45,195 nucleotides of DNA from a virus, in IMG/VR virus record IMGVR_UViG_3300045988_169289; one strand, 5' to 3'. The position numbers were made by a program, and so were the translations under genes. This document shows, piece by piece, positions 10,801-33,034 of this stretch. The notes beneath the pieces were generated by a model, which made no database searches, was not told the DNA's origin, and saw only the letters and a program-made list of their open reading frames with translations. Position 1 is the first letter of the stretch. Every line of letters begins with the position of its first letter.

Positions 10801-11089
10801 GACCGCGCTCATCCTCAGACATCGTGCCGGACTGCAGCTCTTTCCAAGCGCCGCGCAAGTCGTAGTCGTAAACGTCTTTTTCGCGGTGATTTTCCGTCGC
10901 CCATGCCTGATATTTTTCTTCCTCATCAGGCGCCAAAACGGTATTGAACTTATCCGAATAGTCTTCCGAAAACGCATCGCGCGGGCCAACGGCATCCGTA
11001 CCCCAGCGATTGATCTTTGCCTGCCGCATCTGTTCTTCGCTCATCTGCGGCTGCTGAGAGGACGGGCTATAGATTTCCGAAAACAGCAT
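4853..11089 (-). CDS. Giant (2078 aa) multidomain internal-virion/ejection protein, polyvalent-protein-like
   Basis: One uninterrupted ORF in the position of T7 gp16. A Gly/Ala-rich hydrophobic region spans about aa 270-400 (GLAGGVAGGALAFGADVG...LGAAFGGAFW). An HExxH motif HEHSH occupies aa 1280-1284 (nt 7238..7252). QNRDR, GAPIV and GNGR motifs at about aa 1518-1621 are reminiscent of ParB-like domains. Confidence 0.7.
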   Translation of the reverse strand: MLFSEIYSPSSQQPQMSEEQMRQAKINRWGTDAVGPRDAFSEDYSDKFNTVLAPDEEEKYQAWATENHREKDVYDYDLRGAWKELQSGTMSEDERGHLGDKYKKPNHPTFSDQSIYSGQDGVTGGVWSRNAEGKDVYTPGRKLSSVEADRLRRYFLRNEPGVVLDLKDKVFEERPLPGVNTPLGVFSGLGDTWKGIPAAVLQTASSAITAFKNTGADILSRMGTDETRAWWEGQKAVMDQNARDIRDYNKVHFEVDPETMGTASQIVYGLFKTLPKAMGYGLAGGVAGGALAFGADVGIDETNRLMDEGVDRNTAINAGLVSFGMNAIGMRLPAVLGASRGMSAAYGAAANAGTNVAEVEGIKFILEHQDYNQLAQQYDLNGVDLAVSAALGAAFGGAFWRSPEQIRTQKYQDAARLVYEDQRTALFNKGKSQFNFEQAGTQAAINARAVVSLAKRLGIEPDKVRDFSAKIVWSEDGKSAEVPKEAFNMPVTQGKEWHMGPQTIGRENEAVSVVHMSDVPEAGHKAAIDTLVGKLSEGVKNSDSGWVLTGSRGDAKKSLPPFKFAEKNAGLYDAIVQNFEQIVSDAKLIESHADTQHQNPDVRGIHKFTAAASYGGKNYRVQLIVRDYLPSAGGERLATHSIDAVEVEEIGTAGGEGVIAPLAPTDATSVPPGAAQSPGAGVPTAWSSADTVSLSDLLRGFVREDQRGAFDSVDDSYRAEGAAYYEPQEFNQTTGAFSYDAPSQPTDRLVAVHHIDADNLLKANALGGLAVPSIGITKVNSGYSGFGDITLIGTKGLIDPATGTPVYSADAYTNTFPAFEWGKSVDKKKAEALRQEYRKTERFFRGGMDNTMRSLIDSPDRDDFMWRFRNSVVSQKMFLDEKGIKVEPVYLQPYAGTPLEHLLLPLFQKIGVNQSLDVAGSMQAYNEAYVQAVDALGDKATRVQKRNADKIRNGGRLVDAYLYTLINNVEKIGKAPTEPQIDSYATEKRIREVFENNSEGFDAWVAKKTNGLFGEPKIKVGGKLVPVTLQNVVKAMTKRVAKNTQDTMTFGPGKVRAAASKKFSSVESIQANRERVVDPATADEANKSIDAAMSDFRSRAADFYGYKDTFAAMDDAMRALADSAKGKPTTEKVRAALVKNGFKEPKGGFPSELLDSGVKILTDVQKGLTDYFEAKPQRAVGLSEFAGAVVPEGTSPEVLKVLEDAGVEVRTYAKDTVLPGGERTNNRLQAEKELSQKLQQDRGDVLFQHGRGESEIRGSFNPQTNTIKLTPNANLSTFSHEHSHWYLTNLFAHAADENLSPEARADIDALLKAFGLKSVEEYNALPFEQKAKLQERYAAWTERYLSEGEVPAGYLQGMFRNFAWWLMDMYRDLVGEGAGDDAAKKEIGERYKAQFGEDLPELSPDVRRVLNRMYDVEKKMASFRSNSGQVTAARVIQAQRTNNQKVTAPLQDGSAPNAYTAAIRAQQQAAQAMNSGEQVDVSQAMKNAPVNDAAVRQGKNAFAKSFQMGDTGTIVVLQNRDRTGAVSVGQMNAIATAPDYTRLSVSRTTDSGAPIVSFGTLPDSRYLGNTETVADGSHKIPMTYAVVEADSVLRSNNFDGTPVAEYGTDPSRMHAIAGNGRMAGLSEAYNRGTAEQYRQDLMADAQSVGINPEVVAGMQHPVLVRIMPPEAVETGFIERSNSSNVLEKSALETAVQDSPRIRNNVWKYQFDEDGAPTPETVRQFTIDIGEPNSLGKLLTADGRPTETATNRLRAAVFYEAYRDRTLTALVADDTDKQGIKRILNAMAAFAPHVINIREASNDAVDLGSVLVDVVNRIRNAKIEGTPLESIVGQGDVFGDNPAVQQLLGFIAENQNSAAAIARVLEPFAAAVENRLKSSGNGPQAGLFGEAENVSTDLADVMGIFRDTQNRLIDEGNAAMREKGATEGFREALPAVDVVAMRNTLQAMQQAEKPAENVMKSIVETVAEDAGVASEPPPDIPPDAGLDAEAKAAAELETHQAHELEGLSEENSERVQVEDLAALNPDFVYKFKDENGIEHQKTAAEILADEASIDKQADTDMAGLATAAMCIIRNNGIPA

Positions 11090-11091: not shown

Positions 11092-13200
11092 TTATTCCTT
11101 CGTCTTCACTAAATCGAACGTATAGAGGGAGCCGTCGTCACCAAACACCGATTCCCCATTAAGCATCAGACTGTAGGTCACACTGCCGTCTGAGTTCACC
11201 TTCTCAGTCTGCAGGGCGAGTTTCGGCATCTTGGCGGCCAACTCTGCGCCGGTCATCGCCAGTCCGCTGACGTAAAACGTGCCACGGGCCTTTTTGACTT
11301 CTTGCGCCTGGGTTTCTACGAGATTCTCCAAGTCTTCGGAGAAAATGGCCGACGCGTCGATCCCTTTCGGCATCACGGTTTTCTTACCGTTGTACGTTTC
11401 AACATCGCCGCCGACGGCCGCAGCCAGGGCGTCTTCAATGCTTCCGGAACCCGCCCATTGCTGATAGGCCAAGATGCCGCGTGCCAGTTCCACCGTATCG
11501 GCCCGGGCCGCATCCGACTTAAACAGCCCCTGCGTTCCATCGTTGTCCGGATTGATAGCTGCGTAAAGTCGGGCCACATTGCCGGTTTCCACGGCCGGAT
11601 CATCTTTGACCTGCTTTTCGGCGATGAGCTGCAACCCCCGAAGGTACATTTCTCCGGAGGTTATGCCGCCGTCGCCTGGAACAATGTCAAACCCCGCCAT
11701 CGCTATGGCGTACTTGTTGCTGTTTCCCTTCAGTTGCCCTGACACCATACGAATCCCGTCCGGACCCGCCGTGTCAGCAATCGTTTTCAAAAGTGCTACG
11801 CGGGTTTCAATCGGCGAGCTATCAAGAAGCGTCACCAGTCCTGCAGCCTCCTGCTTAGAGAAAAGGCGTTGCGGCACCTGCCAATCCTTCGCCATCGCGT
11901 CCGCCATTTCCACACGCTTCTGAAGTTGCGCTTTCAGCTCATCTGCGTTCTGCCAATTGAGAGGGGTGATGCCGTACTGATTCGTAGCCATCGCGACACC
12001 GATAGGATCAGACTCGCGTTCCTTCAAAATTTTTACCCCAAGAGCTTTTGCTTCTTTCGTTCGGGCGGAGTTCACGAAATCCATCACTCCGGCGCTATCC
12101 AAGCCCCAAAGATTTCGGGACGCCTGAGCATCCCGCACCTTTGCCGCCTTTTCTGGATCAAGTTCGTCCAAACGCTGCAGTAGCGTAACCGGCAACTCTT
12201 CATTGTTGTCTAGCGCCTTGTAGGCCGTATTAACAAGATCAGACGCTTCCATGCGCTTTTCCCATTCACGCACCGCCAGCGCCTGCCGAACCTTCACCGT
12301 AACGCCCTGCCGAACGTCGGCATCAGTGCCCTTTGTGGCCTCGTGCGTCGCCTTCAGAATGTCCGAATCGCTTCCGGAAGTCGCGAGCACCTTTCCCACC
12401 AGGTACTCAATGTCCTGTTTCTGCTGACCGGCTTTGATGAGTTTTTCGCTTTTAGCGACCTGCTCAGCGCTCATATCGTCTTTGTGCGCCTTCAGCCACG
12501 CACGAGCCGCCGCGGGGTTCTTGCCCTCAATGAAAATACCGATAGCGTTCGAGTTAACGGTGTCCATCAGTTTCGGCACATCAACCGGAAGGCCAGACTT
12601 GTCAGCCTGCCACTGCAGTTCAGACATTGCAACGGCGTAGCCTGAGTTCGCCCTGTCCATATCGCCGGACTGGACACCGTTTAAAACGTCATTCGTCGCA
12701 GTATTGAAAGTCGCCGCGTGCGTCGCCTTCTCGAATACCGCCTGTTGCTTCACCATATGGGATTGAAGTTCTGCCCCCAACTGCTGATAGGCCGCCTGCG
12801 AATAGAGGTCATACATCTTCCGCTGACGATCTGTCTTCAGTTGACCGCGGCGATTTGCGAAGAGTGCGCGTCCCTTTTCGAGATACTCTTCCGACAGACT
12901 TTTCCCGTCAGGGCGGTTAAGGGCGTTACTGCCCGTGAGATTGCCCCAACCCTCTTCCGGATTCGACTTCAAATCTTCGAGTTCGCTCTTGGACTGATTG
13001 ATAGCGTCCTGCACGAGCGTCTTGTCGGTTTCGGCCTGCCACTTATCCACAGCCGAGACAATCTTATCAGCAGCCCCGGCGACGAGTTTGTCAGTACGCC
13101 ACTTGGAATCCGGCATAGCATGAAGCGTCCCGAGCCCCCTTACAGCGTTCGGAGTCACGCCGCCCTGATACGGATTACCGGGCACAGTGATAGTTCCCAT
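11092..13200 (-). CDS. Internal virion protein (gp15-like position)
   Basis: ORF 11092..13212. The ATG at 13200 overlaps the upstream stop as TAATG. It is about 700 aa, mostly helical/coiled by composition, and lies between the small and giant internal proteins. Confidence 0.5.
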   Translation of the reverse strand: MGTITVPGNPYQGGVTPNAVRGLGTLHAMPDSKWRTDKLVAGAADKIVSAVDKWQAETDKTLVQDAINQSKSELEDLKSNPEEGWGNLTGSNALNRPDGKSLSEEYLEKGRALFANRRGQLKTDRQRKMYDLYSQAAYQQLGAELQSHMVKQQAVFEKATHAATFNTATNDVLNGVQSGDMDRANSGYAVAMSELQWQADKSGLPVDVPKLMDTVNSNAIGIFIEGKNPAAARAWLKAHKDDMSAEQVAKSEKLIKAGQQKQDIEYLVGKVLATSGSDSDILKATHEATKGTDADVRQGVTVKVRQALAVREWEKRMEASDLVNTAYKALDNNEELPVTLLQRLDELDPEKAAKVRDAQASRNLWGLDSAGVMDFVNSARTKEAKALGVKILKERESDPIGVAMATNQYGITPLNWQNADELKAQLQKRVEMADAMAKDWQVPQRLFSKQEAAGLVTLLDSSPIETRVALLKTIADTAGPDGIRMVSGQLKGNSNKYAIAMAGFDIVPGDGGITSGEMYLRGLQLIAEKQVKDDPAVETGNVARLYAAINPDNDGTQGLFKSDAARADTVELARGILAYQQWAGSGSIEDALAAAVGGDVETYNGKKTVMPKGIDASAIFSEDLENLVETQAQEVKKARGTFYVSGLAMTGAELAAKMPKLALQTEKVNSDGSVTYSLMLNGESVFGDDGSLYTFDLVKTKE

Positions 13201-13976
13201 TACTTGCTCCAACTGAAATTAGAAGGCATCTTGAGGCTCCATCCTTGAGCCCCGGATGAGCCAGACGACGTAGCACCGCTACCGGAACTGCCACCGAAAA
13301 CAGCCTTGAAATCGCTTAAGGTTGCGCCGCTGTACGAGGACTTGCCAGAACCGGACTGGGAGTCGCCCATCGGGCCATTCATAATGTCCATCGCATAGTT
13401 GTTGAAAGTGGTCAGCGCAGCCGCCCATGGAGAAATAGACTTTGCAGCCGAACGGTAGGCAAGTGCCTGATTCTTGTAATCGACAGCCGACCGGCGGTAG
13501 CCCCAGGACTCAGCAACGGCATTCGCCATCACCTGATTCACCTGCATTTCCTTCACAATGTCAATGGAGGTCAGCACTTCGGCTGTCGATCCGGAACCGC
13601 CCACGCGGACGCCCGCTGCAGCCTGCCGGGTTTTGGTGGTTGACTTTGCCTGCCCGGCCTCATACCCAATAGCCGCCGCCTGACGTTCGCCGCCGGCCAT
13701 CACGTCGTCTGCCGCCGTCTCGTAGCTCTGCGCCTGCAAATTCATTAAGTCGGCATTCATTTTCATGAGCGCCTTTTCCTGCTTTGCAGCGCGATAGGCA
13801 AGCCACGTCCCGCCGATCTGCATCACGGACGTGTAACCGACCTTGAATCCTTGCTGAAATTGAGAGAAGCCGCCCGCACCTTTTGCGCTCATGAAAGCGT
13901 TTGCGGACGACGAAATCGCGGAGGATTGTGTAGATCCTTCGCTTGTCTGTTTGGTTGGATGGAGATATTGAGGCAT
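13200..13976 (-). CDS. Small internal virion protein (gp14-like position), Gly/Ser-rich C-terminus
   Basis: 258 aa. SD GGGAG lies upstream of the ATG at 13976. It is the first gene after the lysis cassette and is preceded by the conserved CGTCCATAAA motif. Confidence 0.45.
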   Translation of the reverse strand: MPQYLHPTKQTSEGSTQSSAISSSANAFMSAKGAGGFSQFQQGFKVGYTSVMQIGGTWLAYRAAKQEKALMKMNADLMNLQAQSYETAADDVMAGGERQAAAIGYEAGQAKSTTKTRQAAAGVRVGGSGSTAEVLTSIDIVKEMQVNQVMANAVAESWGYRRSAVDYKNQALAYRSAAKSISPWAAALTTFNNYAMDIMNGPMGDSQSGSGKSSYSGATLSDFKAVFGGSSGSGATSSGSSGAQGWSLKMPSNFSWSK

Positions 13977-13981
13977 TCGGC

Positions 13982-14004
13982 ACTCCCGGATTTTCGCCGA
14001 GAGT
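13982..14004 (-). promoter_or_regulatory. 5' UTR hairpin occluding the SD of the 258-aa gene
   Basis: The minus strand reads ACUCUCGG-cgaaaau-CCGGGAGU (8 bp including one G-U). The 3' arm contains the SD GGGAG and ends 5 nt before the ATG at 13976. Confidence 0.5.
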
Positions 14005-14022
14005 AAACCGAAAGATCAGAAC

Positions 14023-14033
14023 TTTATGGACGG
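14023..14033 (-). promoter_or_regulatory. Conserved motif CCGTCCATAAA, copy 5 (candidate late promoter or RNA element)
   Basis: The plus strand reads tttatggacgg. The motif overlaps the TAA stop of the i-spanin gene and ends 46 nt upstream of the ATG at 13976. Confidence 0.55.
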
Positions 14034-14437
14034 ACTACTTTGGTGAGGGCGTCGTGGTTTGCGGCGCAGCGCTGATAAAGTCGGCCGCATTCCGAACCAG
14101 AGTCAGCCAGTCTTTGAACCAAGCCTTCCAGCTCGGTAACTCTTCGGCTAAGAGCGTCTGTGGAATTTCCACCGGCGGAGCCGTTACCGTCCGCGTGGCG
14201 CAACCTTGCACGAGCCCGATCAAGCTCAGCACGCAAATCGTTGTACTCAGCCTGCGCCAGGTTGATCGTGTCCGTTGCTTTTGAAAGTCCTTCTGCATTT
14301 TTCCTCTCCGCCGCCCGTAGCGCGTCAGACTGCGCCGCCTCCATGAGGGCGATTTCGCGGTCATAGTGTGCGGAGGTCAACCAAGCCCCCGCACCGAAGG
14401 CCAGGACGACCGCCACCATGTAGACGTAATCTTTCAT
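14024..14437 (-). CDS. i-spanin (Rz-like)
   Basis: 137 aa. It has an N-terminal TM segment (YMVAVVLAFGAGAWL) followed by coiled-coil sequence. It lies in the lysis cassette and contains an embedded out-of-frame lipoprotein ORF. Confidence 0.7.
   Translation of the reverse strand: MKDYVYMVAVVLAFGAGAWLTSAHYDREIALMEAAQSDALRAAERKNAEGLSKATDTINLAQAEYNDLRAELDRARARLRHADGNGSAGGNSTDALSRRVTELEGLVQRLADSGSECGRLYQRCAANHDALTKVVRP
14035..14298 (-). CDS. o-spanin (Rz1-like), embedded in the i-spanin gene
   Basis: An alternative frame lies inside 14024..14437. SD GGAGAGG is 5 nt before the ATG at 14298. The signal peptide MQKDFQKQRTRSTWRRLSTTICVLSLIGLVQGC ends in a lipobox-like LVQGC. Confidence 0.6.
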   Translation of the reverse strand: MQKDFQKQRTRSTWRRLSTTICVLSLIGLVQGCATRTVTAPPVEIPQTLLAEELPSWKAWFKDWLTLVRNAADFISAAPQTTTPSPK

Positions 14438-14439
14438 AA

Positions 14440-14721
14440 TCAGCCTGCTATGTAGCCCGCCGGGGCCGGAATGTCTACGAATTCTTTCGCAAATTCCTGA
14501 GGCTTATACGCGCGGAACTCACCGTTCGGCAGCCGCACAATGTAGTCGCCGAGATCTACAGACACCGGCCCTTGCTTAGTGCAAAGTACGCACACATCCT
14601 GACACACCCAACCCAGCTGAACGATACGCGACCCCATCAGGGCGCACAACTCAGGCGAGTCAACATCGCCATCAAAAACAATGGCGTGAACCGTCGTGTA
14701 ACGATACTGATATTCCTTCAT
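14440..14721 (-). CDS. Hypothetical protein (93 aa)
   Basis: ORF tightly packed in the minus-strand operon between the lysis genes. No motif was recognised. Confidence 0.5.
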   Translation of the reverse strand: MKEYQYRYTTVHAIVFDGDVDSPELCALMGSRIVQLGWVCQDVCVLCTKQGPVSVDLGDYIVRLPNGEFRAYKPQEFAKEFVDIPAPAGYIAG

Positions 14722-14733
14722 TTTCTTTTCTCC

Positions 14734-14970
14734 TTACTTCTTGGATTTCTTCGCCTTCTTCACTCGGCGGTCTTGGCGGTAGTCGTAAGCGTCCTTCAGC
14801 ATCCACGCGAAGCAACGCTGGTCTTCCTCGTTTAATTTCACCGAGGCTTCCGCAGCCGTTTCACCATCGCTGATGCGAATATCGAGGTAAATCTTTCCGC
14901 GGTTTTGGCGCATACGAAGATCAGTTCCTTTGCCGGTGAATCCCTCTTTGGACAGAGATTTCTTTTTCAT
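14734..14970 (-). CDS. Hypothetical basic protein (78 aa)
   Basis: The ORF overlaps the endolysin stop by 4 nt and has Lys-rich termini. No motif was recognised. Confidence 0.45.
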   Translation of the reverse strand: MKKKSLSKEGFTGKGTDLRMRQNRGKIYLDIRISDGETAAEASVKLNEEDQRCFAWMLKDAYDYRQDRRVKKAKKSKK

Positions 14971-15344
14971 TTACTACTCCTGTAGTCCCAAAAAGCGTGA
15001 TGCCCACGCACATCAACATGTACGAATGCGTCGTAAAGTCCGACGCCGCCGTCTTTATTGAGCTCCAGGCACAAGTCCTGAAACTCGGAAATCAGAGACG
15101 GATCATCCGGTCGAATGTCCGCCGCCATGCCTTTCGTGTGATACGAGTTCGGTACAGCCCCCTTGATCGTCGCGTTGTATTCCGGACTGCGGTAGCCCGA
15201 ATTCACGAGAACCGGCTTTCCCCACTCGCGCCGGATGCGGTTCAAAAGGTTCAAAAGTTCATCGCGTACCACGTGCGGAAAAGGAGACTTGTGCGGATCC
15301 TTCGGACTCTGCAACTCCTTTTCATCAAAGAAACCGTATTTCAT
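14967..15344 (-). CDS. Endolysin, peptidase M15 (D-Ala-D-Ala carboxypeptidase-like) family
   Basis: The sequence SGYRSPEYNATIKGAVPNSYHTKGMAADI ... FVHVDVR matches the H-x(6)-D ... H zinc-binding pattern of M15 peptidoglycan peptidases. It is adjacent to the holin gene. Confidence 0.8.
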   Translation of the reverse strand: MKYGFFDEKELQSPKDPHKSPFPHVVRDELLNLLNRIRREWGKPVLVNSGYRSPEYNATIKGAVPNSYHTKGMAADIRPDDPSLISEFQDLCLELNKDGGVGLYDAFVHVDVRGHHAFWDYRSSK

Positions 15345-15628
15345 CGGCCGCCTCTTTCTAGGAATCCTTTCAAAATATTCACCCCATCTTTGCCCATCAT
15401 CCCGCCGAGCCCGGCTAATGCGCCACCGGCTTCATCCGGCAAACCGTAGGAATGAGCCGCCATGCAGATCAAAAAACCGATAAAGCCGGACAGCAACCCC
15501 GCCGCGAAAAATTCACCCCACGGAAAAGGTTTTGTTTTGTCCAGTGAGTTCAATCGCATAAGAAACTGAGCCATAGCCGCCACCATGAAGGCAAAGATGT
15601 ATCGGAAGTATTCGTGGTAGTCCTGCAT
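15341..15628 (-). CDS. Holin
   Basis: 95 aa with at least two TM segments (IFAFMVAAMAQFLM and FFAAGLLSGFIGFLICMAA) and a charged C-terminus. It overlaps the endolysin start by 4 nt. Confidence 0.65.
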   Translation of the reverse strand: MQDYHEYFRYIFAFMVAAMAQFLMRLNSLDKTKPFPWGEFFAAGLLSGFIGFLICMAAHSYGLPDEAGGALAGLGGMMGKDGVNILKGFLERGGR

Positions 15629-15634
15629 GGGAAT

Positions 15635-15673
15635 CTCGCCCCTCTTCTAATGGAACCATTTTCGAGGGGCGAG
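15635..15673 (-). promoter_or_regulatory. 5' UTR hairpin occluding the holin SD
   Basis: The minus strand reads CUCGCCCCUC-(19 nt)-GAGGGGCGAG, a perfect 10-bp stem. The 3' arm contains the SD GAGGGG and ends 6 nt before the ATG at 15628. The hairpin starts 7 nt after the conserved motif. Confidence 0.6.
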
Positions 15674-15680
15674 GTGACTA

Positions 15681-15691
15681 TTTATGGACGG
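15681..15691 (-). promoter_or_regulatory. Conserved motif CCGTCCATAAA, copy 4
   Basis: The plus strand reads tttatggacgg. The motif abuts the TAG stop (15692..15694) of the tail tubular B-like gene and ends 52 nt upstream of the holin ATG. Confidence 0.55.
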
Positions 15692-18316
15692 CTACGTAGA
15701 GACGTTGAGCACCAAGCCTTGCACCGTGAGCGGCAACGGGTCGGCCTGCCGGATGCAGACAGAACCTTCGGTTTGCCATGTCGGCGCAAGGCGCAGCTCG
15801 ATTTCCTCTGTTTTGAGTTCCGGAGGTGTCCCCGGTGTTTCTGTCGTGCGCTGCTTGTATTCCGTGAGATTATCGAAGTCCGCCCCCACGAACACGCCCG
15901 ACGAGCGGCAGACCTGCAGGAAGGCTTGAATGATGTTCTTTTTGATTCCTCCTCCAAGCGCCGCCTTGTTCTGCATTGTGAGCGGCAACGTCTTAGCATC
16001 AGCCTCGAAAGGCAATCCGACTATCACTTTGGACGCAGGCGAATCAAGGTCAACCGCTCCATTCGTTACAACTTGTTGAGGCATGACGGCACCATCAGCA
16101 AGGATAGAAACCGTCTTGCCTTCGAGCCAATTCAAACCGGTAACGTGCGTTGTCGGCTCCCCGGAATACACGCCGCCCGAGTCCACAAAGAACGCATCCT
16201 GGATGTTTTCAACGTTCATTGAAGTCATCCGCTCAATGTAGCGTTTCGTCTGCCCGTTGATTTCACGACGAACGACAACGTAAAGATGGTCCTCTTCGCC
16301 CTCTTCCACGGCCGCCACGGACTCAAACACACCGTCGGTAATGTGCTGATGCCAGGCCAAAACTTCCTGTTCTGGAATGTATGTCAGCCCCAAAAGCGAG
16401 CCATCGGAACTGATATACCAAAGAAGCGGTATAGGCGCCAAAGCCAATGCCGAGTCCAAAACATTTTTGAAGTCGAAAAGATGCGAAGCCCGGAGGCACA
16501 GATCCGACGACACAAAGCCGCCCGCCGAATATTCATAAGCAAAGTCTCGGACGTGCCCGCCACGAGCCGCACAATAGACAACGGCATTGCCGACGACCTG
16601 CGGCATCACCCGGCTAGATCCTGTATTACTCTGAGGCTTTGCGGCAATGGACGACGGAGAAATCACACTGCCGTCCTGCGGACTGATGCGGAAAGCCATG
16701 CTGGACGTGAGGAGAATCAGGCTTGTCAGCGAAACGACGTGCTGTACTGCGCTGAATTCTCGACTTGCCATTTGAAAACTCACGCGGTCATCATCGCGAT
16801 ATGGGAGGGAATAACTGAAGTCCGACTCACTGCCCGTACGCGTCATCAGCACACGTTGCGGATCCGAATGCAATCCGGCAAAGATACGCCGCTGCTCGAA
16901 GTACCCGACGGCCCGAGGATAGTCACCAGCGCCACCTGCCGTCGCCGTACCCGTAGCACCGGAGCCCGTACCACCGCGAAATGTCAGTTTCGGTGCCGTG
17001 TACTCGGAACCCGCCGCCCTGATCTGTACGGAAACAACCTTCCCGTTTTCAACCACAGCCCGCAGTTGAGCGCCGGAACCAGTACTGTCGGACACCTCCA
17101 CTGTTGGAACGCCGGAATAGGTGGACAGAGAATACGTCTCTGTTTTTGTCTTCGAACCGCCGAAAATACCCCGCGTCTGCCCGGAAACCACCACCTTCGG
17201 TGAAGTGTAGTTATTCCCTTCGGAAACAATGCGGATGCCTTTCAGCGTCGTATAGTAGTTGGTGTAACTGCCGCCGCTTGAAGACGTTCCGGACGATGAA
17301 TGTCGCTCAAGCACCAACTCAACTTTGCCGCCGTAGCCAGTATTGGCCGAATCGCTGAGCGTCACTGAAAGCGAAGGGTAGCCAGAACGTGAAATCCACA
17401 TCGTGCTAATGTTTTCCACCGGCAAAAGTCCATTGACGCAGTTGGTGTAACCGCTTCCGCCGTTTGTTACCGTCACTGACTTAATGCCGCGAGACGTAGA
17501 GAACACATCATCAAAGCGACGAATCGTTATATCCGTCTTCGGCGTAATGTTGTCGTCGATGATTTCCGGCGTTTCACTATCGCCAATGTAGCCGTAAAGT
17601 CCGCCCTTGTTTTTATAGAAGCGATAGAAGGCTGCGCCCTTCATCACGTCGCAGGTAATCTTGACCGTAGTCCCGTAAGCGTAGAGGTTTGCCACGACAC
17701 TCACCGCTTCACTCGCTTCGCTTTCCTCTGTTTTGTCGGCATTGAGGCAAGATACCCGATACTTCTGAGTGTACTTGTCGGCGTTCGAATCTTCAGCCGC
17801 AGCCGTTGCACGTACCGCCGCTACCCCCGTCGGCGTCGGGAGTTTCGTATTGGTCTCGACTGTTACGATTCGCCAGTCCCGTGCGCCATAGCGACGAATT
17901 TCAGTCGGCGGATAGTTTTCGTGCGCCACCGTCACAATATCGCCGGACTGCACGTAATCCAAGGCGAACAAGTCGGCAGAGTCCCAAGGTGTTGTGACCT
18001 GATACTCCGTCCCGTCGTCATTCACCAGCGTCGCACCGTAGCTATGGAACCGGGCGTACTTGTGTCCGAGCTCAATAATCATCGTCTGCCCGGCACTGTA
18101 CGTGAACGGGATCAGCCGCACTGGGCGCGAGTCGTTACCCACTTTGTTCACGAATTCGAACCCCGGGCGGTTGCGGATAGGTCCCTGCGGCAGGCAGATG
18201 AAGTTTTGGCACTTCAAAAGCCCGGCCTGATACTTCACGTCGTCGCGGCGGCCATACATATCCGGCGAGATTTCGCCCCCGGCAAAGCTAAGCTGAATTA
18301 CTTTATCAACGGCCAT
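15692..18316 (-). CDS. Tail tubular protein B-like (nozzle) protein
   Basis: ORF 15692..18352. SD GGGAGG precedes the ATG at 18316. The N-terminus MAVDKVIQLSFAGGEISPDMYGRRDDVKYQAGLLKCQNFICLPQGPIRNRPGFEF is typical of podovirus tubular B/stabilisation proteins. It follows the tubular A-like gene. Confidence 0.55.
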   Translation of the reverse strand: MAVDKVIQLSFAGGEISPDMYGRRDDVKYQAGLLKCQNFICLPQGPIRNRPGFEFVNKVGNDSRPVRLIPFTYSAGQTMIIELGHKYARFHSYGATLVNDDGTEYQVTTPWDSADLFALDYVQSGDIVTVAHENYPPTEIRRYGARDWRIVTVETNTKLPTPTGVAAVRATAAAEDSNADKYTQKYRVSCLNADKTEESEASEAVSVVANLYAYGTTVKITCDVMKGAAFYRFYKNKGGLYGYIGDSETPEIIDDNITPKTDITIRRFDDVFSTSRGIKSVTVTNGGSGYTNCVNGLLPVENISTMWISRSGYPSLSVTLSDSANTGYGGKVELVLERHSSSGTSSSGGSYTNYYTTLKGIRIVSEGNNYTSPKVVVSGQTRGIFGGSKTKTETYSLSTYSGVPTVEVSDSTGSGAQLRAVVENGKVVSVQIRAAGSEYTAPKLTFRGGTGSGATGTATAGGAGDYPRAVGYFEQRRIFAGLHSDPQRVLMTRTGSESDFSYSLPYRDDDRVSFQMASREFSAVQHVVSLTSLILLTSSMAFRISPQDGSVISPSSIAAKPQSNTGSSRVMPQVVGNAVVYCAARGGHVRDFAYEYSAGGFVSSDLCLRASHLFDFKNVLDSALALAPIPLLWYISSDGSLLGLTYIPEQEVLAWHQHITDGVFESVAAVEEGEEDHLYVVVRREINGQTKRYIERMTSMNVENIQDAFFVDSGGVYSGEPTTHVTGLNWLEGKTVSILADGAVMPQQVVTNGAVDLDSPASKVIVGLPFEADAKTLPLTMQNKAALGGGIKKNIIQAFLQVCRSSGVFVGADFDNLTEYKQRTTETPGTPPELKTEEIELRLAPTWQTEGSVCIRQADPLPLTVQGLVLNVST

Positions 18317-18935
18317 ACCAGCCTCCCATTTCCTCCGGAAGGCGCATATCACCCGTATAAGGCGTTCGTGCCATATCCACCGAAGTATCCTGCAAAGCGT
18401 CGCGCTTAATAGCGTCTTTCACCATCAGCGTGTAAATCTTCAGTTGTTCTTCTGCCATGGAAGCACCAGTCGCCCCGGTAATCGCTGCACCTGCGAGTTT
18501 GGCCGCCAGCAAATGCGCCAGAGCATCGGCAAAATCCGACGGGAACAACTCAGCCGGCACCAGCGCCGTCGTATACCGAGCCCAATCCGCCGGAACGTCC
18601 GTCAGAATCGCCATACCGTAATCCGACCGTTCCAGATGATAGGAATACAGGTCACGGCCCGACTTGTCGAATACACGCTGAATCTGCAGGCAATCTGACG
18701 GATATCCGTAGGCATAGGCCGCACCAATCGGAGTTTCTTTCAGCTGATTGAGTTTGGTGCGCTTTGTGGCAAATGTCCACGCCGTTTCAGTGAGAATACG
18801 GTTAAGCGCCAACGGGTAGAACCGGGCACAATGATCCGCCTGCGGAGAACCTTCGGGCGGATCAATGGAAGTCACCGTGCCCGTATCGCCGAGATACGAC
18901 AGCGCGATGTTACAAATATCGACAACGGTAGCCAT
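18306..18935 (-). CDS. Tail tubular protein A-like / head-tail adaptor
   Basis: 209 aa. The N-terminus MATVVDICNIALSYLGDTGTVTSID...CARFYPLALNRILTETAWTFA matches a pattern I associate with podovirus adaptor/tubular A proteins. Its position after the capsid genes fits. Confidence 0.5.
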   Translation of the reverse strand: MATVVDICNIALSYLGDTGTVTSIDPPEGSPQADHCARFYPLALNRILTETAWTFATKRTKLNQLKETPIGAAYAYGYPSDCLQIQRVFDKSGRDLYSYHLERSDYGMAILTDVPADWARYTTALVPAELFPSDFADALAHLLAAKLAGAAITGATGASMAEEQLKIYTLMVKDAIKRDALQDTSVDMARTPYTGDMRLPEEMGGWYGR

Positions 18936-18945
18936 AGGGCCTCCT

Positions 18946-18975
18946 ATGAAAACGGGGAGCCGTCAGACTCCCCGT
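18946..18975 (-). terminator. Intrinsic (probably partial) terminator after the capsid genes
   Basis: The minus strand reads ACGGGGAG-ucugacgg-CUCCCCGU followed by UUUCA. It lies between the 133-aa capsid-associated gene and the tubular A-like gene. Confidence 0.55.
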
Positions 18976-19027
18976 AAAACTGCGCACCGCCAGCCGTCAG
19001 ACCAGCGGAGAGATAAGGATCACCTCC

Positions 19028-19429
19028 TTAAGCAGCGTAGTTCGGATTCGCTTCATAATCCCCGATTCGCTTCCCGCGCGGGCTATCCGGACGGAGCGTC
19101 ACGCCGGCAGACACCTTGCCAGACATGGACGTGCCCGCAAACACCAACTTGGTGTACTGGGGTAAGCCCTGCGGAATCGGGATATTGATCCCACCACCGT
19201 CCGTGAGGTCAGTCAGCTTGTAGGAAAGGATTTCCGTGAACGTGGAGTTATCGGAACTGCCCTGAAGCGCAACGCTTGAGAGCCCCGTCACCGCACCGAC
19301 GTTGCGGACGTAGATATAGCCGACACCTTCGGAAATACCGGCCTTACCAATATCAAGAACCTTCGAATCCTTGCTTGCGCCGGAAAGCGTCAGTTCATTG
19401 GCATACATGGTCAAAAAATCAACATGCAT
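19028..19429 (-). CDS. Putative head decoration/cement protein (133 aa)
   Basis: ORF 19028..19573. SD GGGAGAAAG precedes the internal ATG at 19429, which removes the overlap with the capsid gene. It lies immediately downstream of the major capsid gene. Confidence 0.4.
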   Translation of the reverse strand: MHVDFLTMYANELTLSGASKDSKVLDIGKAGISEGVGYIYVRNVGAVTGLSSVALQGSSDNSTFTEILSYKLTDLTDGGGINIPIPQGLPQYTKLVFAGTSMSGKVSAGVTLRPDSPRGKRIGDYEANPNYAA

Positions 19430-19442
19430 CGTTCTTTCTCCC

Positions 19443-20441
19443 TTAGCTGATCTTGGCTTCGTCGATGCGGATAGCGTCGTCGGCTTCAATCGGAATCGTG
19501 AAGAAGTGCGTCGCCATCTGTTCGGCAGCTTCCACAATCTTGAGGCACTGCGTGGACTTTTCATAGGCGGCAATTTCCAAGGCCGTCTGAATTTCCGTGC
19601 GGCAAAGCATCACCTGATGACGGCGCAACTGAGCCGGAATACGGTTCTTCGCGCGGATCAGCGTCTTGATAAGAGAATCAGACTGCAGATCAACTTCGCC
19701 ATCCTTCATCGGTATGTTGCACACACGAACGCAGGCTCGCCAATCGTTAAGAGCCGCACCGGGTTGCCACTTGTAGTGGTCAACGTATGCTTCCATCTTG
19801 CCCTTGCCGTCGGGGGCGTCTACAGTCTGCTGACCCTTATCTGTATGCTGCAAACCATATTTCGAGCCCTTCGGGTAAAGTCCGAAGAATTCGTCAAAGT
19901 TAACAATATAGACAGAAGTGTAGCCATCAGCCGTACCGGTATAACCAGCATCAGCAGCAACAACATTGTGCGACGCCGGAACCTTTTTGTTCATCGTGGC
20001 ATAGCGCGTAGCCAAGCCAGTGAACTTGCGAATATCCTTGTCATTGTCGCCGTAATAAAGAGCGGCAGCGACGGCATCGCTCATGCCCTGAATAAAGGCC
20101 TTTTCTTCCGAGAGGCGGAACTGAGCCGTGTTGCCGTTGATATTGGCAAGGTCAATATCAACGTTAGCGTAGTTTTCAACGTTAGAGGTCACGTCCACCA
20201 CAGAGGCAGTCGAAGACTTCGTCGGCTGGACGCCTTCGTACATCCCGCGCCACGTCGGTTCAGGGATGCCAGTTCGGATTGAATGCTTGAAGCCCGTGGT
20301 CATGTTGCATTCGCGCCACGGAATATGTCGCAGGATAGCGTTATTCTGCGACAAGACTTCTGCAATCGGAGCAATCTCGCCGTTCTCATCCGTGCGGGAT
20401 GCGACATCAGCAAGGGTAGGATACTGAGCAATAGCAGCCAT
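19443..20441 (-). CDS. Major capsid protein
   Basis: 332 aa, directly after the scaffold gene. The N-terminus ...VLSQNNAILRHIPWRECNMTTGFKHSIRTGIPEPTWRGMYEGVQPTKS is typical of a podovirus HK97-fold capsid family. Confidence 0.75.
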   Translation of the reverse strand: MAAIAQYPTLADVASRTDENGEIAPIAEVLSQNNAILRHIPWRECNMTTGFKHSIRTGIPEPTWRGMYEGVQPTKSSTASVVDVTSNVENYANVDIDLANINGNTAQFRLSEEKAFIQGMSDAVAAALYYGDNDKDIRKFTGLATRYATMNKKVPASHNVVAADAGYTGTADGYTSVYIVNFDEFFGLYPKGSKYGLQHTDKGQQTVDAPDGKGKMEAYVDHYKWQPGAALNDWRACVRVCNIPMKDGEVDLQSDSLIKTLIRAKNRIPAQLRRHQVMLCRTEIQTALEIAAYEKSTQCLKIVEAAEQMATHFFTIPIEADDAIRIDEAKIS

Positions 20442-20450
20442 GCTTTCCTC

Positions 20451-21137
20451 TTAGTTCATCTTGGAATTGTTGAAAAACCGGGCCAACGGGTCTCCCTGTC
20501 CGCCCTCACCGTTGCCGCGCGGTGAAACGTCGTCGGAGATCGACTGAGCGATCTGATAGAACATCTTGATAATCCCCGGATGCGTATCGAGCCCCGTCTG
20601 TACGAGGAGCTCCCGCGCCTCCGGCGGGCAATACTTCTGAAATGCCTTCGCCGCAATGCCGAGGTTTTGTTTGGCCTTCGCGCCGCCGAGTTCCTTGTCC
20701 GCAGCGAACGCCTTGAGGTTTTCACTCTTGAAGGACGCCAGCGCCTGTTCCTGCGCCTGCTGCAGCACCGGACTCATCTTGTTGATGATCGTGGCAAAGG
20801 ACTTCTGCGAGAGGCCCATTTCGTGGCAGACACCCGCCAACGTTTCGCAAACATCGTCGTTCAATTCCGCGCCTTCGGGAACTTCGATGCCTTCGTTGGT
20901 GTAGGAATCTTCGGGCGCACCGAGCCATTCATTGGGCTTATCGCCCTTGTCCGTCCCGTCGTCACCCGCCGCAGATTCTCCACCATCATTGGCCGCGTCC
21001 GCCCCCCGGGTCGCCGGAGGTACTGCATCGGCGGCAGCGGGCGTACCTCCGGCGACACCGGGATCAGTCGTACCGGTATCAGGAGGCGTAGCGCCAGCGT
21101 CCGCACCGGTATCCGTAACAGTTGCCGCATCTGTCAT
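20451..21137 (-). CDS. Scaffolding protein
   Basis: 228 aa with an acidic, low-complexity N-terminal half and a helical C-terminal half. It lies between the portal and capsid genes. Confidence 0.6.
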   Translation of the reverse strand: MTDAATVTDTGADAGATPPDTGTTDPGVAGGTPAAADAVPPATRGADAANDGGESAAGDDGTDKGDKPNEWLGAPEDSYTNEGIEVPEGAELNDDVCETLAGVCHEMGLSQKSFATIINKMSPVLQQAQEQALASFKSENLKAFAADKELGGAKAKQNLGIAAKAFQKYCPPEARELLVQTGLDTHPGIIKMFYQIAQSISDDVSPRGNGEGGQGDPLARFFNNSKMN

Positions 21138-21454
21138 TTGTTTTCCTCTCGCATTGAATTGATCTGCTCTTCAAGCCCGGCCGAGCGAAGTCGCCGGAGA
21201 ATGTCAAGCCCTACATCGCGCCGAGCACTGAGGAGCATCATTCGCATCGGATCAGTACTCGTCACCGAGTCCGTCTGCCCCGTAAGGGAGAGAACCCAGT
21301 GCATTGCCCGACGGCCGAACTCGGTTTCCATCAGGCTTTTCAGCGCGTTGTCGAGTTTCTTTTCTTCCTGCTTTCGCAGCCGTTCTTCTTCTGCGCGGGC
21401 TTCTTCCTCTTCGAAAATGCCCTGCATCCGAGTGTCTGCCATTGTTTCCGTCAT
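21134..21454 (-). CDS. Small conserved head-module protein (Bbp19-like position)
   Basis: 106 aa between portal and scaffold. It overlaps the scaffold start as ATGA. It has a Glu-rich N-terminus followed by RRAMHWVLSLTG...ARRDVGLDILRRL. Confidence 0.4.
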   Translation of the reverse strand: MTETMADTRMQGIFEEEEARAEEERLRKQEEKKLDNALKSLMETEFGRRAMHWVLSLTGQTDSVTSTDPMRMMLLSARRDVGLDILRRLRSAGLEEQINSMREENK

Positions 21455-21463
21455 CCCATCACC

Positions 21464-21474
21464 TTTATGGACGG
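21464..21474 (-). promoter_or_regulatory. Conserved motif CCGTCCATAAA, copy 3
   Basis: The plus strand reads tttatggacgg. The motif starts 2 nt after the portal TAA stop and ends 9 nt before the ATG at 21454. Its CCGUC can pair with GACGG, which overlaps the last base of that start codon (AUGACGG). Confidence 0.5.
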
Positions 21475-21476
21475 CC

Positions 21477-24078: not shown

Positions 24079-24543
24079 TCACAGACTCCTTATAAATGTC
24101 ACCTGACAGCCTGAATGCGGCCGTTTCTGCAAAGCCGCGGCGAGTGGTGCTTGCTCGTCGCAGACCCACTGAAACGACGTACACCCCCGCTTTTTTGCCT
24201 CACGCTCACACATCACAAAAAGCCGTCCGGGCACCGTCGTCCCTCGGTATTCGGGCAATACGAAAATCGTGTCGTTGCAGGCCGTGAGTTCTCCAGAATG
24301 CTGATGAGGCGCGACAAAGATCGACGCAGCCCCCACCGCTTTTTCTCCGTCGTAGGCGACAAAGGCAAACGCCAGCGAGTTTTCGGAGAGTGCGCGGTAG
24401 AAGTCTTCCGTCGGATCAAAGATCGGGCCGTTACCTGATTCGCGGAAATTCGTTTCCAGCAAATCTCGGTGCTTCCGCAGCAGGTCATAACAGGACATGA
24501 GTACGTATCGCATACCCGCAGTTTCAGCGGGGCGACGGTACAT
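24079..24543 (-). CDS. GNAT-family N-acetyltransferase-like protein
   Basis: 154 aa. ...AFVAYDGEKAVGAASIFV...IFVLPEYRGTTVPGRLFVMCEREAKKRGC resembles the GNAT acetyl-CoA-binding core. The alternative start M11 (ATG at 24513) lies 1 nt after a CCCGC-N7-GCGGG hairpin (24515..24531). Confidence 0.55.
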   Translation of the reverse strand: MYRRPAETAGMRYVLMSCYDLLRKHRDLLETNFRESGNGPIFDPTEDFYRALSENSLAFAFVAYDGEKAVGAASIFVAPHQHSGELTACNDTIFVLPEYRGTTVPGRLFVMCEREAKKRGCTSFQWVCDEQAPLAAALQKRPHSGCQVTFIRSL

Positions 24544-24575
24544 TTATGGACGACAATCGCTCAATCGTCCATAAA
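24543..24575. promoter_or_regulatory. Divergent pair of the conserved motif (copies 2 and 2b) forming a 33-bp palindrome
   Basis: tttatggacga (24543..24553), 11 nt, then tcgtccataaa (24565..24575). One copy faces the GNAT gene on the minus strand and the other faces the Com-like gene on the plus strand. Confidence 0.6.
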
Positions 24576-24630
24576 CTTCAAAGCCCTGCAAATACGATGC
24601 GTTCATGAAATTTCATGGGAGGGTACTGCA

Positions 24631-24843
24631 ATGGAAGTTCAAGTCCGTTGCCGATGCGGCAAACGCCTTTTCGACCTTTCGCTAGACAGGCCTCCAGGCG
24701 GACGCATCTACATCTTGTGTCGCTGTAAAACGATGAACGTCATCGACCTTTCCGCGTATTCCAATCTGCAGGCCCATTCGGAGCCTGTTTCAAAAGAGGC
24801 CCCTGAGCCCACTTCTCAGCGCCAAGCGAGCGCACAATCCTGA
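24631..24843 (+). CDS. Com-like zinc-finger protein (candidate translational regulator)
   Basis: 70 aa. SD GGGAGGG lies 8 nt upstream. MEVQVRCRCGKRLFDLSLDRPPGGRIYILCRCKTMNVIDL resembles phage Mu Com (RCxxCxKLLF ... IRCPRCK...I.L), but with CxC instead of CxxC knuckles. Confidence 0.45.
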   Translation: MEVQVRCRCGKRLFDLSLDRPPGGRIYILCRCKTMNVIDLSAYSNLQAHSEPVSKEAPEPTSQRQASAQS

Positions 24844-30226: not shown

Positions 30227-30264
30227 GGGCGAGACCTCAGAATTTAGTCTCTGCAGTCTCGCCC
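30227..30264 (-). promoter_or_regulatory. 5' UTR hairpin abutting the tailspike start codon
   Basis: The minus strand reads GGGCGAGAC-(20 nt)-GUCUCGCCC, a perfect 9-bp stem. The 3' arm ends at the base before the ATG at 30226 and covers part of the SD region (GAGGUCUCGCCC). Confidence 0.6.
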
Positions 30265-30277
30265 CGTGGCCCCGGCG

Positions 30278-30289
30278 TTTATGGACGGG
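30278..30289 (-). promoter_or_regulatory. Conserved motif CCCGTCCATAAA, copy 1
   Basis: The plus strand reads tttatggacggg. The motif abuts the TerL TAA stop (30290..30292) and ends 51 nt upstream of the tailspike ATG. Confidence 0.55.
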
Positions 30290-31636: not shown

Positions 31637-32085
31637 TCTTTGTCGCTACTCCATCCGATGCTGAGACCACCCGCAAACGTCGTCTTATTGTCCTTTTCGT
31701 AGAAACCGACGTGCTTTCCGATCAACTCAAGTGCCTTATTGGCTGCCGGTGCGTCTACCTGTTCCTGCACCTGCAGTCCTGCATCGTCGTAGACCGGAGA
31801 CCGACATTCGCCATCGAACTCGGTTTTCCCGTAAGTCTTGGCATTGATCCGGTATTGGTCGATATGCCACTGCAGCACCTGATCCTGAGTGATTTCGAGC
31901 CGTTGCGTTCGAGCGGCTTTTCCGTCCGCAACAGCCTCCATAACGTTAACATTTGACAACAGGCGGGACGCCTGCTCACGCGCCGTCTTCGCACTATATC
32001 CCGCCCGAATTGCAGCCTGAGTCGCGTTAAGATCGACAAGGTACTCTTGCACAAATCGTTCCTGTTTCGGCGTCAGTTTCGGCAT
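31633..32085 (-). CDS. terS: Terminase small subunit (P27/Terminase_2-like)
   Basis: MPKLTPKQERFVQEYLVDLNATQAAIRAGYSAKTAREQASRLLSNVNV is the typical N-terminal HTH of this family. I chose the internal ATG at 32085 within ORF 31633..32145. Confidence 0.8.
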   Translation of the reverse strand: MPKLTPKQERFVQEYLVDLNATQAAIRAGYSAKTAREQASRLLSNVNVMEAVADGKAARTQRLEITQDQVLQWHIDQYRINAKTYGKTEFDGECRSPVYDDAGLQVQEQVDAPAANKALELIGKHVGFYEKDNKTTFAGGLSIGWSSDKE

Positions 32086-32465
32086 TCTCTCCTCTCCCAA
32101 TGATCCACAACTCTCCCCCGCATGAGCCCTGCCGCCACAGCCCATACAGTTGATTTTGGCATATCAAGCATATCGGCTATGGCCTTGAAGCTGAACCCCT
32201 CATCCCGCAGCTGAAACACCTGATCTATCTCGGCGTCAGTGTACTTTGCCACCGGCGAGTCCTCCCCAATCCGAACCCCGTTGCTGCTCACTGCCACCAT
32301 CCGCAAAGAAACTCGGACACTCTTGGCGGGCTTGCGCGACGGCGTTTTCGATGACACGCTTGCGGGAGATTGACTCTTTTGGCAAGGCTTGGGCTTCGGC
32401 GGCAGCCCGGGCAAGTCGGGTTGCCACCAAAGGCGGGAAAACAAAAGCAATTCCGAGTCGTTCAT
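32073..32465 (-). CDS. HTH-containing protein (130 aa), candidate late-gene regulator
   Basis: The C-terminal half, AKYTDAEIDQVFQLRDEGFSFKAIADMLDMPKSTVWAV, looks like a sigma-70 region 4 or resolvase-type HTH. The N-terminal half is Pro/Ser/Lys low-complexity. It lies immediately upstream of TerS. Confidence 0.45.
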   Translation of the reverse strand: MNDSELLLFSRLWWQPDLPGLPPKPKPCQKSQSPASVSSKTPSRKPAKSVRVSLRMVAVSSNGVRIGEDSPVAKYTDAEIDQVFQLRDEGFSFKAIADMLDMPKSTVWAVAAGLMRGRVVDHWERRECRN

Positions 32466-32837: not shown

Positions 32838-33034
32838 TCTTCGCCCTCCCTATGGTTCTTTTCGACCTGGGCATCACGGACACCCAGCCAAAAGTACTGT
32901 TGCTCCAGTTTGTTCGTGAACTGCGCGGCCTCTATGGACGGAGCCGAGCCTTTCAGTCCCACGTCGTGACCGGCCTTGTAGGCGCGGTTAATCTTTTCTG
33001 CGACGGCGCGGGAAACTCCGGCAGGCGTTTTCAT
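32834..33034 (-). CDS. Small protein, paralog A (YKAG-x-D-x-x-LKG motif)
   Basis: I chose the internal ATG at 33034 within ORF 32834..33079. ...INRAYKAGHDVGLKGSAPSIEAAQFTNKLEQQYFWLGVRDA aligns with the protein encoded at 33222..33464. Confidence 0.45.
   Translation of the reverse strand: MKTPAGVSRAVAEKINRAYKAGHDVGLKGSAPSIEAAQFTNKLEQQYFWLGVRDAQVEKNHREGEE

Follow-up and report, generated by a model that had tools for sequence, protein, structure and literature searches.

The record IMGVR_UViG_3300045988_169289 of IMG/VR comprises 45,195 nucleotides of viral DNA, which we refer to as the window, and this analysis concerns a short motif that recurs between its late genes, together with the hairpins that follow the motif at the holin gene and elsewhere. 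An identical direct repeat of 119 nt is present at the two ends (1-119 and 45077-45195, spacing 45076), which means that the window is a circularly closed contig of ~45.1 kb and not a fragment. According to scans against PHROG and Pfam, the phage is temperate and its structural module is T7/BPP-1-like; an integrase, a cI/Cro pair and replication genes are also encoded. The portal protein is 99% identical to that of a Duodenibacillus massiliensis prophage and 45% identical to that of Bordetella phage BPP-1 (Rauchvirus), the closest cultured relative; the host of this temperate, BPP-1-like podovirus is D. massiliensis or a close relative. All its late genes are on the minus strand (Table 1), from the terminase genes through the portal, capsid and tail tubular genes to the holin and the internal virion proteins (IVPs). 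No phage RNA polymerase was found among the window proteins by the PHROG and Pfam scans; a 2078-aa protein and an 855-aa protein were considered as candidates and rejected, the first being a polyvalent protein and the second a virion protein.

The exact 11-mer CCGTCCATAAA occurs four times in the window, always on the minus strand and 0-2 nt past the stop codon of the upstream gene, and copies with one mismatch lie at 24543 (minus), 24565 (plus) and 32931 (minus). The motif can be written as (C)CGTCCATAAA, with the core GTCCATAnA, and the aligned copies have no conservation upstream of it save a pyrimidine at position -1. Downstream, a hexamer nAnnnT is found at a fixed distance. For a test of this spacing 35 non-redundant copies of GTCCATA[N][A/G] were taken from the window and from relatives with 54-99% portal identity; A2 and T6 of the hexamer are the two best-conserved positions of -10 elements, and its background frequency is 0.051. 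The hexamer stands exactly 17 nt downstream of the motif in 31 of the 35 copies, as compared with 0-6 copies at any other offset from 0 to 44, and all 31 copies obeying the rule have different spacer sequences. All six copies with the GTCCATAAA core in the window (the four exact 11-mers and two with one mismatch) are among those that obey it. Three of the four exceptions are intragenic (in the related loci L005, L016 at 16628 and L018 at 3351), and the fourth is the window copy at 32931, where CAAACT follows after 18 nt. Seven nucleotides past the hexamer, 23 of the 31 copies have a purine (A in 19, G in 4).

Judged by its sequence, the arrangement of motif, 17 nt and hexamer is most likely a bipartite promoter of the sigma-70 style whose -35 position is taken by a phage-specific sequence, and the motif most likely serves as the upstream element, spanning about -40 to -30, for a family of at least six late promoters. 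The -35 position carries CATAAA, which has no resemblance to the TTGACA of sigma-70-type promoters. Because the motif is unlike TTGACA and varies between phage groups, as described below, it is probably read by a phage-encoded factor acting together with the host RNA polymerase. The possibility that CATAAA is itself a -10 element, or a sigma-32-like or ECF-like one, was considered and rejected, as a Shine-Dalgarno sequence (SD) abuts the motif at the site past the portal gene and no conserved -35 element is present upstream. Promoters of comparable composition exist in other phages: middle promoters of T4 combine a MotA box centred at -30 with a sigma-70 -10 element, and the sites of Mu C and P2 Ogr are dyads located further upstream. 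The window shares with these systems the sigma-70-like -10 element, the phage-specific replacement of the -35 element and the presence of several promoters across the late region; it differs from them in the position of its element at ~-40 to -30 with a strict 17-nt spacer and in that its factor is a candidate.

The same architecture is found in related phages. A megablast of window positions 13000-22000 against the phage collection gave no match; relatives were reached through the portal protein, with which a search of IMG/VR yielded 80 loci of 99% to 31% portal identity. On the gene strand, copies of the core GTCCATAnA are found at three homologous positions, namely past TerL and ahead of the acetyltransferase (GNAT) gene, past the portal gene and past the gene of tail tubular protein B (tubB), and this placement is kept in groups whose portals are only 54-81% identical, the opposite strand being almost without copies. 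In more distant phages the motif changes. Locus L054 has G[T/C]CATAAA-N17-nAnnnT at all three sites, and groups with 35% portal identity have GTGCGCAT-N18-nAnnnT at four sites, the one ahead of TerS included; the 18-nt spacer and the hexamer accompany 11 of 11 intergenic copies of GTGCGCAT, as against 0 of 9 chance copies in other phages. BPP-1, which has the same gene order, differs in its upstream motif: it has three copies of GGGTGCCCGTGCC-N15-nAnnnT (AAAACT, TACTGT and TAGAGT), each followed by N6/7-ATG, at equivalent late positions, and these bipartite sites are, from their sequence, probable leaderless late promoters. That the motif changes by lineage while its position and spacing remain fixed points to a phage-encoded reader that co-evolves with it. 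The BPP-1 copies (L093, NC_005357) are on the plus strand at locus positions 8445, 10607 and 13992, the first of which suggests that TerS begins further downstream than annotated. The tubB/IVP junction of BPP-1 showed no hairpin-gated site, and no direct statement on BPP-1 late promoters was found in the literature searched, which did not cover the BPP-1 genome paper.

The motif might instead be a protein-binding DNA site of another function, for example a stoperator-like repressor site or a recombination sequence at module boundaries, a reading to which we give very little credence. It would agree with the asymmetry of the motif, its intergenic position at module junctions, its orientation with transcription and the presence of a copy on both sides of the inserted tailspike/accessory cassette, but it leaves the invariant A2/T6 hexamer at 17 nt and the ATG at the start position unexplained, and no copy was found elsewhere in the early region, including 36677-36783 between the repressor and cro-like genes.

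At every site the start of transcription was predicted at ~7 nt past the -10 hexamer. For the GNAT gene this places the start at the A of a conserved ATG at 24513, which is M11 of the listed open reading frame (ORF). In all groups the ATG of GNAT is 6-7 nt past the hexamer, and the distance from the motif to the ATG is constant at 29-30 nt despite sequence divergence; no SD is present at the GNAT sites in any of the groups. With an ATG at the predicted start and no SD, the GNAT mRNA is probably leaderless, and the annotated start of the gene should be M11 (24513). The holin promoter is predicted to start at an A at ~15651, leaving a 23-nt leader to the ATG at 15628, and the corresponding predictions are an A at ~30248 with a 22-nt leader for the tailspike and an A at ~13993 with a 17-nt leader for the IVP promoter. 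At the orthologous site past tubB, relatives have TACCTT where the IVP promoter of the window has TACTCT.

The two copies at 24543 (minus) and 24565 (plus) are back to back, 11 bp apart, and occupy the sole intergenic space from which the GNAT-to-portal block and, in the opposite direction, the accessory cassette could both be transcribed. This cassette includes a gene for a 70-aa Com-like protein, a gene for a 209-aa protein and others. Its promoter has the predicted start at the ATG of a 26-codon ORF (24605-24685, plus strand), which overlaps the Com-like gene start out of frame and may be translated as a leaderless mini-ORF. For the post-portal promoter, the predicted start lies within the 5' end of a 106-aa ORF, and this promoter probably feeds the protease/scaffold and capsid genes. 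Folding of its leader gave no hairpin, and the pairing of the motif with the start-codon region (CCGUC/GACGG at 21464) that had been proposed in the initial annotation finds no support, as the leader has z = +1.3 and 189 of 200 shuffled sequences are as stable. In L014 (~11660-11760) and L016 (~11648-11740) the homologue of the 106-aa ORF is open through the motif (GTC CAT AAA = V H K), and no ATG, GTG or TTG was seen, reading by eye, ahead of its conserved G-I-F/Y region. A possible first late promoter with weaker evidence, at the 32931 copy, lies within an 81-aa ORF, 94 nt upstream of a DUF1064 gene, and does not follow the 17-nt rule.

Table 1. Genes, predicted late promoters and hairpins of the window
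Feature	Position	Strand	Remark
Candidate late activator, 75-aa helix-turn-helix protein	32073..32300 (ORF readable from 32465)	-	Bbp27 homologue
Small terminase (TerS)	31633-32145	-	PHROG/Pfam scans
Large terminase (TerL)	30290-31636	-	PHROG/Pfam scans
Tailspike	27152-30226	-	PHROG/Pfam scans
Com-like 70-aa zinc-ribbon gene	24631..24843	+	accessory cassette
Acetyltransferase (GNAT)	24079-24513	-	PHROG/Pfam scans
Portal	21477-23144	-	PHROG/Pfam scans
Protease/scaffold, capsid, tail tubular protein A	between portal and tubB	-	PHROG/Pfam scans
Tail tubular protein B (tubB)	15692-18352	-	PHROG/Pfam scans
Holin	15341-15628	-	PHROG/Pfam scans
Internal virion proteins (IVPs)	from 13976 downwards	-	PHROG/Pfam scans
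Possible first late promoter (weaker evidence)	32901..32941	-	motif CCGTCCATAGA, 18-nt spacer, -10 CAAACT 32912-32907
Tailspike late promoter (predicted)	30248..30288	-	motif 30288-30278, -10 GAGACT 30260-30255
Divergent accessory-cassette promoter (predicted)	24565..24605	+	motif 24565-24575, -10 TACGAT 24593-24598, start A 24605
GNAT late promoter (predicted)	24513..24553	-	motif TCGTCCATAAA 24553-24543, -10 GAAACT 24525-24520
Post-portal promoter (predicted)	21434..21474	-	motif 21474-21464, -10 AACAAT 21446-21441, start ~21434
Holin late promoter (predicted)	15651..15691	-	CCGTCCATAAA 15691-15681, 17-nt spacer, -10 GAAAAT 15663-15658
IVP late promoter (predicted)	13993..14033	-	motif 14033-14023, -10 TACTCT 14005-14000
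Tailspike hairpin	30227..30264	-	5' arm overlaps -10 hexamer; 3' arm has GAGG, ends at ATG
GNAT small hairpin	24515-24531	-	between spacer and +1; ends 1 nt before ATG (M11); no SD
Holin hairpin	15635..15673	-	CUCGCCCCUC-N19-GAGGGGCGAG; 5' arm = last 10 nt of promoter spacer
IVP hairpin	13982..14004	-	ACUCUCGG-N7-CCGGGAGU; 3' arm carries GGGAG

The initial annotation had described hairpins downstream of four motif copies, with 3' arms that carry the SD or touch the start codon, and all four are found on the minus strand where it had placed them. The minimum free energy of each leader was compared with those of 200 shuffled sequences. The holin leader (15617-15691), with its CUCGCCCCUC/GAGGGGCGAG stem, folds at -27.6 kcal/mol (z = -4.7) and the tailspike leader (30215-30288) at -35.4 kcal/mol (z = -5.0), none of the 200 shuffles being as stable in either case; the GNAT leader (24500-24553) folds at -18.8 kcal/mol (z = -3.0, 1/200 shuffles as stable) and the IVP leader (13965-14033) at -19.7 kcal/mol (z = -2.1, 7/200). 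In the holin, tailspike and IVP hairpins, the 3' arm contains an SD-like GAGG or GGGAG. The promoters and the hairpins are superimposed. The loop of the holin hairpin contains the -10 hexamer and the predicted start, and the 5' arm of the IVP hairpin is the -10 hexamer, which doubles as an anti-SD. The predicted start is within the hairpin loop at the tailspike, holin and IVP sites of the window and at six of the seven post-tubB sites in relatives (L003, L014, L016, L017, L043 and L049); the seventh, in L048, folds weakly.

An RNA that reads through from upstream would therefore differ from one that begins at the predicted start, since the latter lacks the 5' arm. Calculated in this way, the read-through and promoter-derived RNAs fold at -27.4 and -4.4 kcal/mol for the holin, -33.8 and -3.9 kcal/mol for the tailspike and -19.7 and -3.9 kcal/mol for the IVP gene. 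In the window and the relatives together, the SD is paired in read-through RNAs, which fold at -17.6 to -33.8 kcal/mol, and promoter-derived RNAs fold at -0.2 to -5.4 kcal/mol; with the predicted starts, the latter have 17-23-nt leaders in which the SD is free.

The stems hold up when they are compared between relatives, the check that the initial annotation had suggested. At the post-tubB sites the arm sequences are entirely different in each group and the register of the hairpin is unchanged, and the -10 sequence TACCTT of the relatives has the form of an anti-SD that pairs with the SD AAGGTA. Wobble or compensatory changes occur in close relatives; in L011, for instance, an A-U pair of the inner tailspike stem is replaced by G-C. 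The hairpins are thus more than chance, because orthologous sites with different arms fold in the same register and compensatory changes are present. RNAalifold, run on a MAFFT alignment of nine post-tubB sites, returned no structure, as loops of variable length put the 3' arms out of alignment; these hairpins were judged by folding each sequence separately. The SD is in the 3' arm of every orthologue despite the complete turnover of the arms, which points to selection on SD pairing.

This last observation bears on the possibility that the main target of the hairpins is the upstream transcript, for which they would serve as weak terminators, insulators, T7-like RNase III sites or 3'-protective structures, with the occlusion of the SD being incidental and the motif still being a promoter. 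The hairpins are at the boundaries of transcription units; in relatives of the GTGCGCAT type the orthologous hairpin is followed by a terminator-like run of five to six T, and in L048 a separate hairpin with five T (-24.5 kcal/mol), similar to a terminator but not flagged by the terminator scan, directly precedes the motif. In the window, on the contrary, the tails that follow the four hairpins (AUUCCCAUG, AUGGCU, GCCGAAUG and UAUG) contain no U-tract and none of the hairpins was flagged as terminator-like by the scan. The stems of 8-15 bp (up to ~20 bp at the tailspike if outer pairs are counted) are also short for RNase III, which needs about two turns of double-stranded RNA, and an incidental occlusion does not account for the SD being retained in the 3' arm of every orthologue. 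We therefore regard this explanation as unlikely. A role as 5' stabiliser or RNase III site is possible as the fate of read-through RNA and is not needed for the explanation given next.

We consider it quite probable that the motif marks late promoters with a phage-specific -35 element, which start inside hairpins that occlude the ribosome-binding site (RBS) and which are probably activator-dependent. A phage-encoded factor, together with the host RNA polymerase, would fire these promoters through the motif at the -35 position, and transcription would begin ~7 nt past the -10 element, that is, at the A of the ATG for GNAT and in the hairpin loop for the tailspike, holin and IVP genes. The promoter spacer and the -10 hexamer would encode the 5' arm of the hairpin, whose 3' arm carries the SD. 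RNA reading through from an upstream promoter would contain both arms, fold and hide the RBS, whereas RNA from the gene's own promoter would have no 5' arm, so that its SD would be free and the message translatable. Translation of the tailspike, holin and IVP genes would in this way be tied to the firing of their own late promoters and, as with the lysozyme of T4, gating of the holin would prevent premature lysis. Such a mechanism would account for the buried or missing SDs of several late genes, and in annotation an occluded RBS should not be taken as the sign of a silent gene.

By analogy, a hairpin-embedded late promoter is a design already known from T4 (the logic of gene e and I-TevI). 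In T4 gene e (lysozyme), soc, I-TevI/II/III and segB, and in Aeh1 mobE, long transcripts hide the RBS in a hairpin, the late promoter is located in the DNA for the 5' strand of this hairpin, and late transcripts do not have that strand and are translated (PMC3014915, PMC2988022). Common to T4 and the window are the hairpin that hides the SD on RNA derived from upstream, the promoter that spans the 5' strand and the presence of a lysis gene among the targets. Unlike T4, where a -10-only element, TATAAATA, is read by gp55, the window has a phage-specific motif at the -35 position, 17 nt and nAnnnT; the starts and the effects on translation were measured in T4 and are predicted in the window phage, which is a temperate BPP-1-like podovirus that would use leaderless starts in parallel. 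The T4 design of a promoter within an inhibitory hairpin would thus recur in an unrelated temperate lineage with a different type of promoter. A similar logic is known from the transposable elements IS10 and IS50, where transcripts from outside hold both halves of the inverted repeat and have the RBS occluded, and the element's own promoter starts inside the repeat. This protection from read-through was reportedly described by Davis, Simons and Kleckner in 1985 and by Krebs and Reznikoff in 1986; in the literature searched, no direct statement of the mechanism was found. There, in difference to the window, a single transposon gene is involved and the role is the silencing of accidental activation.

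The initial annotation had interpreted the motif and hairpins as multi-gene translational control in which one small zinc-finger protein unlocks several late genes. The conserved hairpins that bury the SD, that of the holin included, retain the first half of this idea: since the arrangement is conserved, control at the level of translation is plausible. The second half, in which the motif, as GUCCAUAAA in RNA, is a single-stranded operator and binding of the 70-aa Com-like protein melts the hairpins, now appears highly improbable. Its attraction is that read-through RNA has the motif 1-18 nt ahead of the SD-occluding hairpins, which is the layout of Mu com/mom, that the phage encodes a small zinc-ribbon protein, whose orthologue in L011/L012 has CxxC...CxxC as in Mu Com (the window protein itself has CxC pairs), and that the AUG of the gene downstream of the Com-like gene is in a stem. 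The fixed 17-nt spacing, the leaderless geometry of GNAT and the purine at position 7 are, on the other hand, features of the DNA that serve no purpose in an RNA operator; motif and hairpin lie at variable distances from each other, the post-portal site has a motif and no hairpin, and with the predicted starts the motif is absent from promoter-derived mRNA and present only in read-through RNA. As the predicted start is in the loop, mRNA made from the promoter would need no unlocking.

The distribution of the Com-like gene also speaks against its involvement. It was found by tblastn of the related loci only in L001 and L008-L013, the closest clade, where TerL and GNAT are separated by an insertion made up of the cassette that carries it and the tailspike block; in other groups TerL, the motif and GNAT are directly adjacent. 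It was not found within 10 kb of the portal gene in L003, L014, L016, L017/L022, L043 or L049, which keep the motif and hairpins, and the protein had no match in 50,697 phage records, the complete BPP-1 genome included. Among 5.8 billion proteins only two relatives were found, one near-identical and one 64% identical. Its membership in the Com family is itself unproven: it had no Pfam hit at E <= 0.01, PHROG 6417 ('translational regulator') was matched at E = 0.032 and Mu Com by BLASTP at E = 0.089. Because the gene is absent from the sampled regions of relatives that keep the architecture, and from BPP-1, its product can hardly be the factor behind the conserved system; the Com-like gene is most likely not part of the promoter/hairpin system, and the claim of a Com regulon finds no support. 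The window thus resembles Mu com/mom in having a gene for a small zinc-ribbon protein and a hairpin over a start region, and differs from it in that its motif is at the -35 position of a predicted promoter and is not a demonstrated RNA site, in that the occurrence of the Com-like gene does not follow that of the motif and hairpins, and in that similarity to Mu Com is marginal. A direct comparison of the Mu com-mom RNA with the motif yielded only CAUAA in common, which is not meaningful. Downstream of the Com-like gene, the AUG of the 209-aa gene (24850-24885, plus strand) is part of a stem of 9-10 bp, CCAUAGCAAA/UUUGCUAUGG, whose loop contains the SD AGGAG. These two adjacent genes may form a true Com/mom-like pair of local scope, independent of the late-promoter motif.

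A better candidate for the factor that reads the late promoters, as judged by homology and gene position, is the 75-aa helix-turn-helix (HTH) protein encoded directly upstream of TerS. Its gene is present in 60 related loci, always in this position, and the protein is homologous to Bbp27 of BPP-1 (E = 3e-14). Its recognition helix differs with the type of motif, being P-x-S-T-V-W-A in all GTCCATA phages, IPIRTLRD in GTGCGCAT phages and QSKGAIAK in BPP-1. Similarity of the protein to HTH domains of the ECF sigma region 4, resolvase and LuxR kinds did not reach the threshold; the structure model has a mean pLDDT of 66, and a fold search of the PDB gave generic HTH matches only (E >= 0.086). Tentatively, and with clearly less confidence than in the promoters themselves, we suggest that the Bbp27 family of stand-alone HTH proteins of ~75 aa retargets the host RNA polymerase to a lineage-specific -35 motif (GTCCATAnA, GTGCGCAT or GGGTGCCCGTGCC) throughout the BPP-1-like temperate podoviruses, giving leaderless and hairpin-freed mRNAs, so that the holin, tailspike and ejection proteins would be translated only from transcripts of their own late promoters. 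If true, this would be a previously undescribed system of late transcription. The analysis names a small HTH protein as candidate late activator and provides a testable late-promoter consensus with predicted starts for uncultured gut Sutterellaceae prophages and for the model phage BPP-1.

Several points weigh against the promoter interpretation or parts of it. All start sites are predictions from the position of the -10 hexamer, the hexamers are weak, often GAnnnT, and a scan with the sigma-70 consensus found no promoter at the motif sites. The post-portal promoter cannot serve its nearest gene, since its predicted start is inside the 106-aa ORF. If all late promoters fire together, silencing of read-through RNA has a clear benefit only if early transcription enters the late region. 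The location of the motif just 5' of the hairpins in read-through RNA makes an additional role at the RNA level possible. As to the candidate activator, its likeness to sigma region 4 is below threshold (E = 0.004 to 0.8), and the co-variation of recognition helix and motif is confounded by phylogeny.

Further observations concern other parts of the window. In the region of the 32931 motif copy, the DUF1064/Holliday-junction-resolvase-like gene (32470-32837, minus strand) is present as two ORFs of 47 and 80 aa and is a single continuous gene in the L022 group, which suggests a frameshift or pseudogene in the window. The neighbouring ORFs 32834-33079 and 33222-33605 (minus strand), the first of which contains this motif copy, encode paralogous proteins with the common motif ...YKAG.D..LKG... 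KLE.... Where the plus-strand cassette meets the minus-strand genes at 26128-27161, a terminator-like hairpin with a T-run (26147-26175) probably ends both converging units. The 2078-aa polyvalent virion protein (4853-11089, minus strand) has PBECR5 (barnase/EndoU-like nuclease), ddrB-ParB and LPD3 domains. A group II intron is present at 43305-45092 (minus strand), with Rfam matches to D1-D4 and D5/6 (RF02001, RF01998, RF00029) that flank a 442-aa reverse transcriptase at 43392-44720; this enzyme is intron-encoded and not part of a diversity-generating retroelement of the BPP-1 style. Finally, a C4 antisense RNA (RF01695, 66 bits) at 41857-41941 (plus strand) represents a P1/P7-type immunity RNA in a BPP-1-like podovirus.

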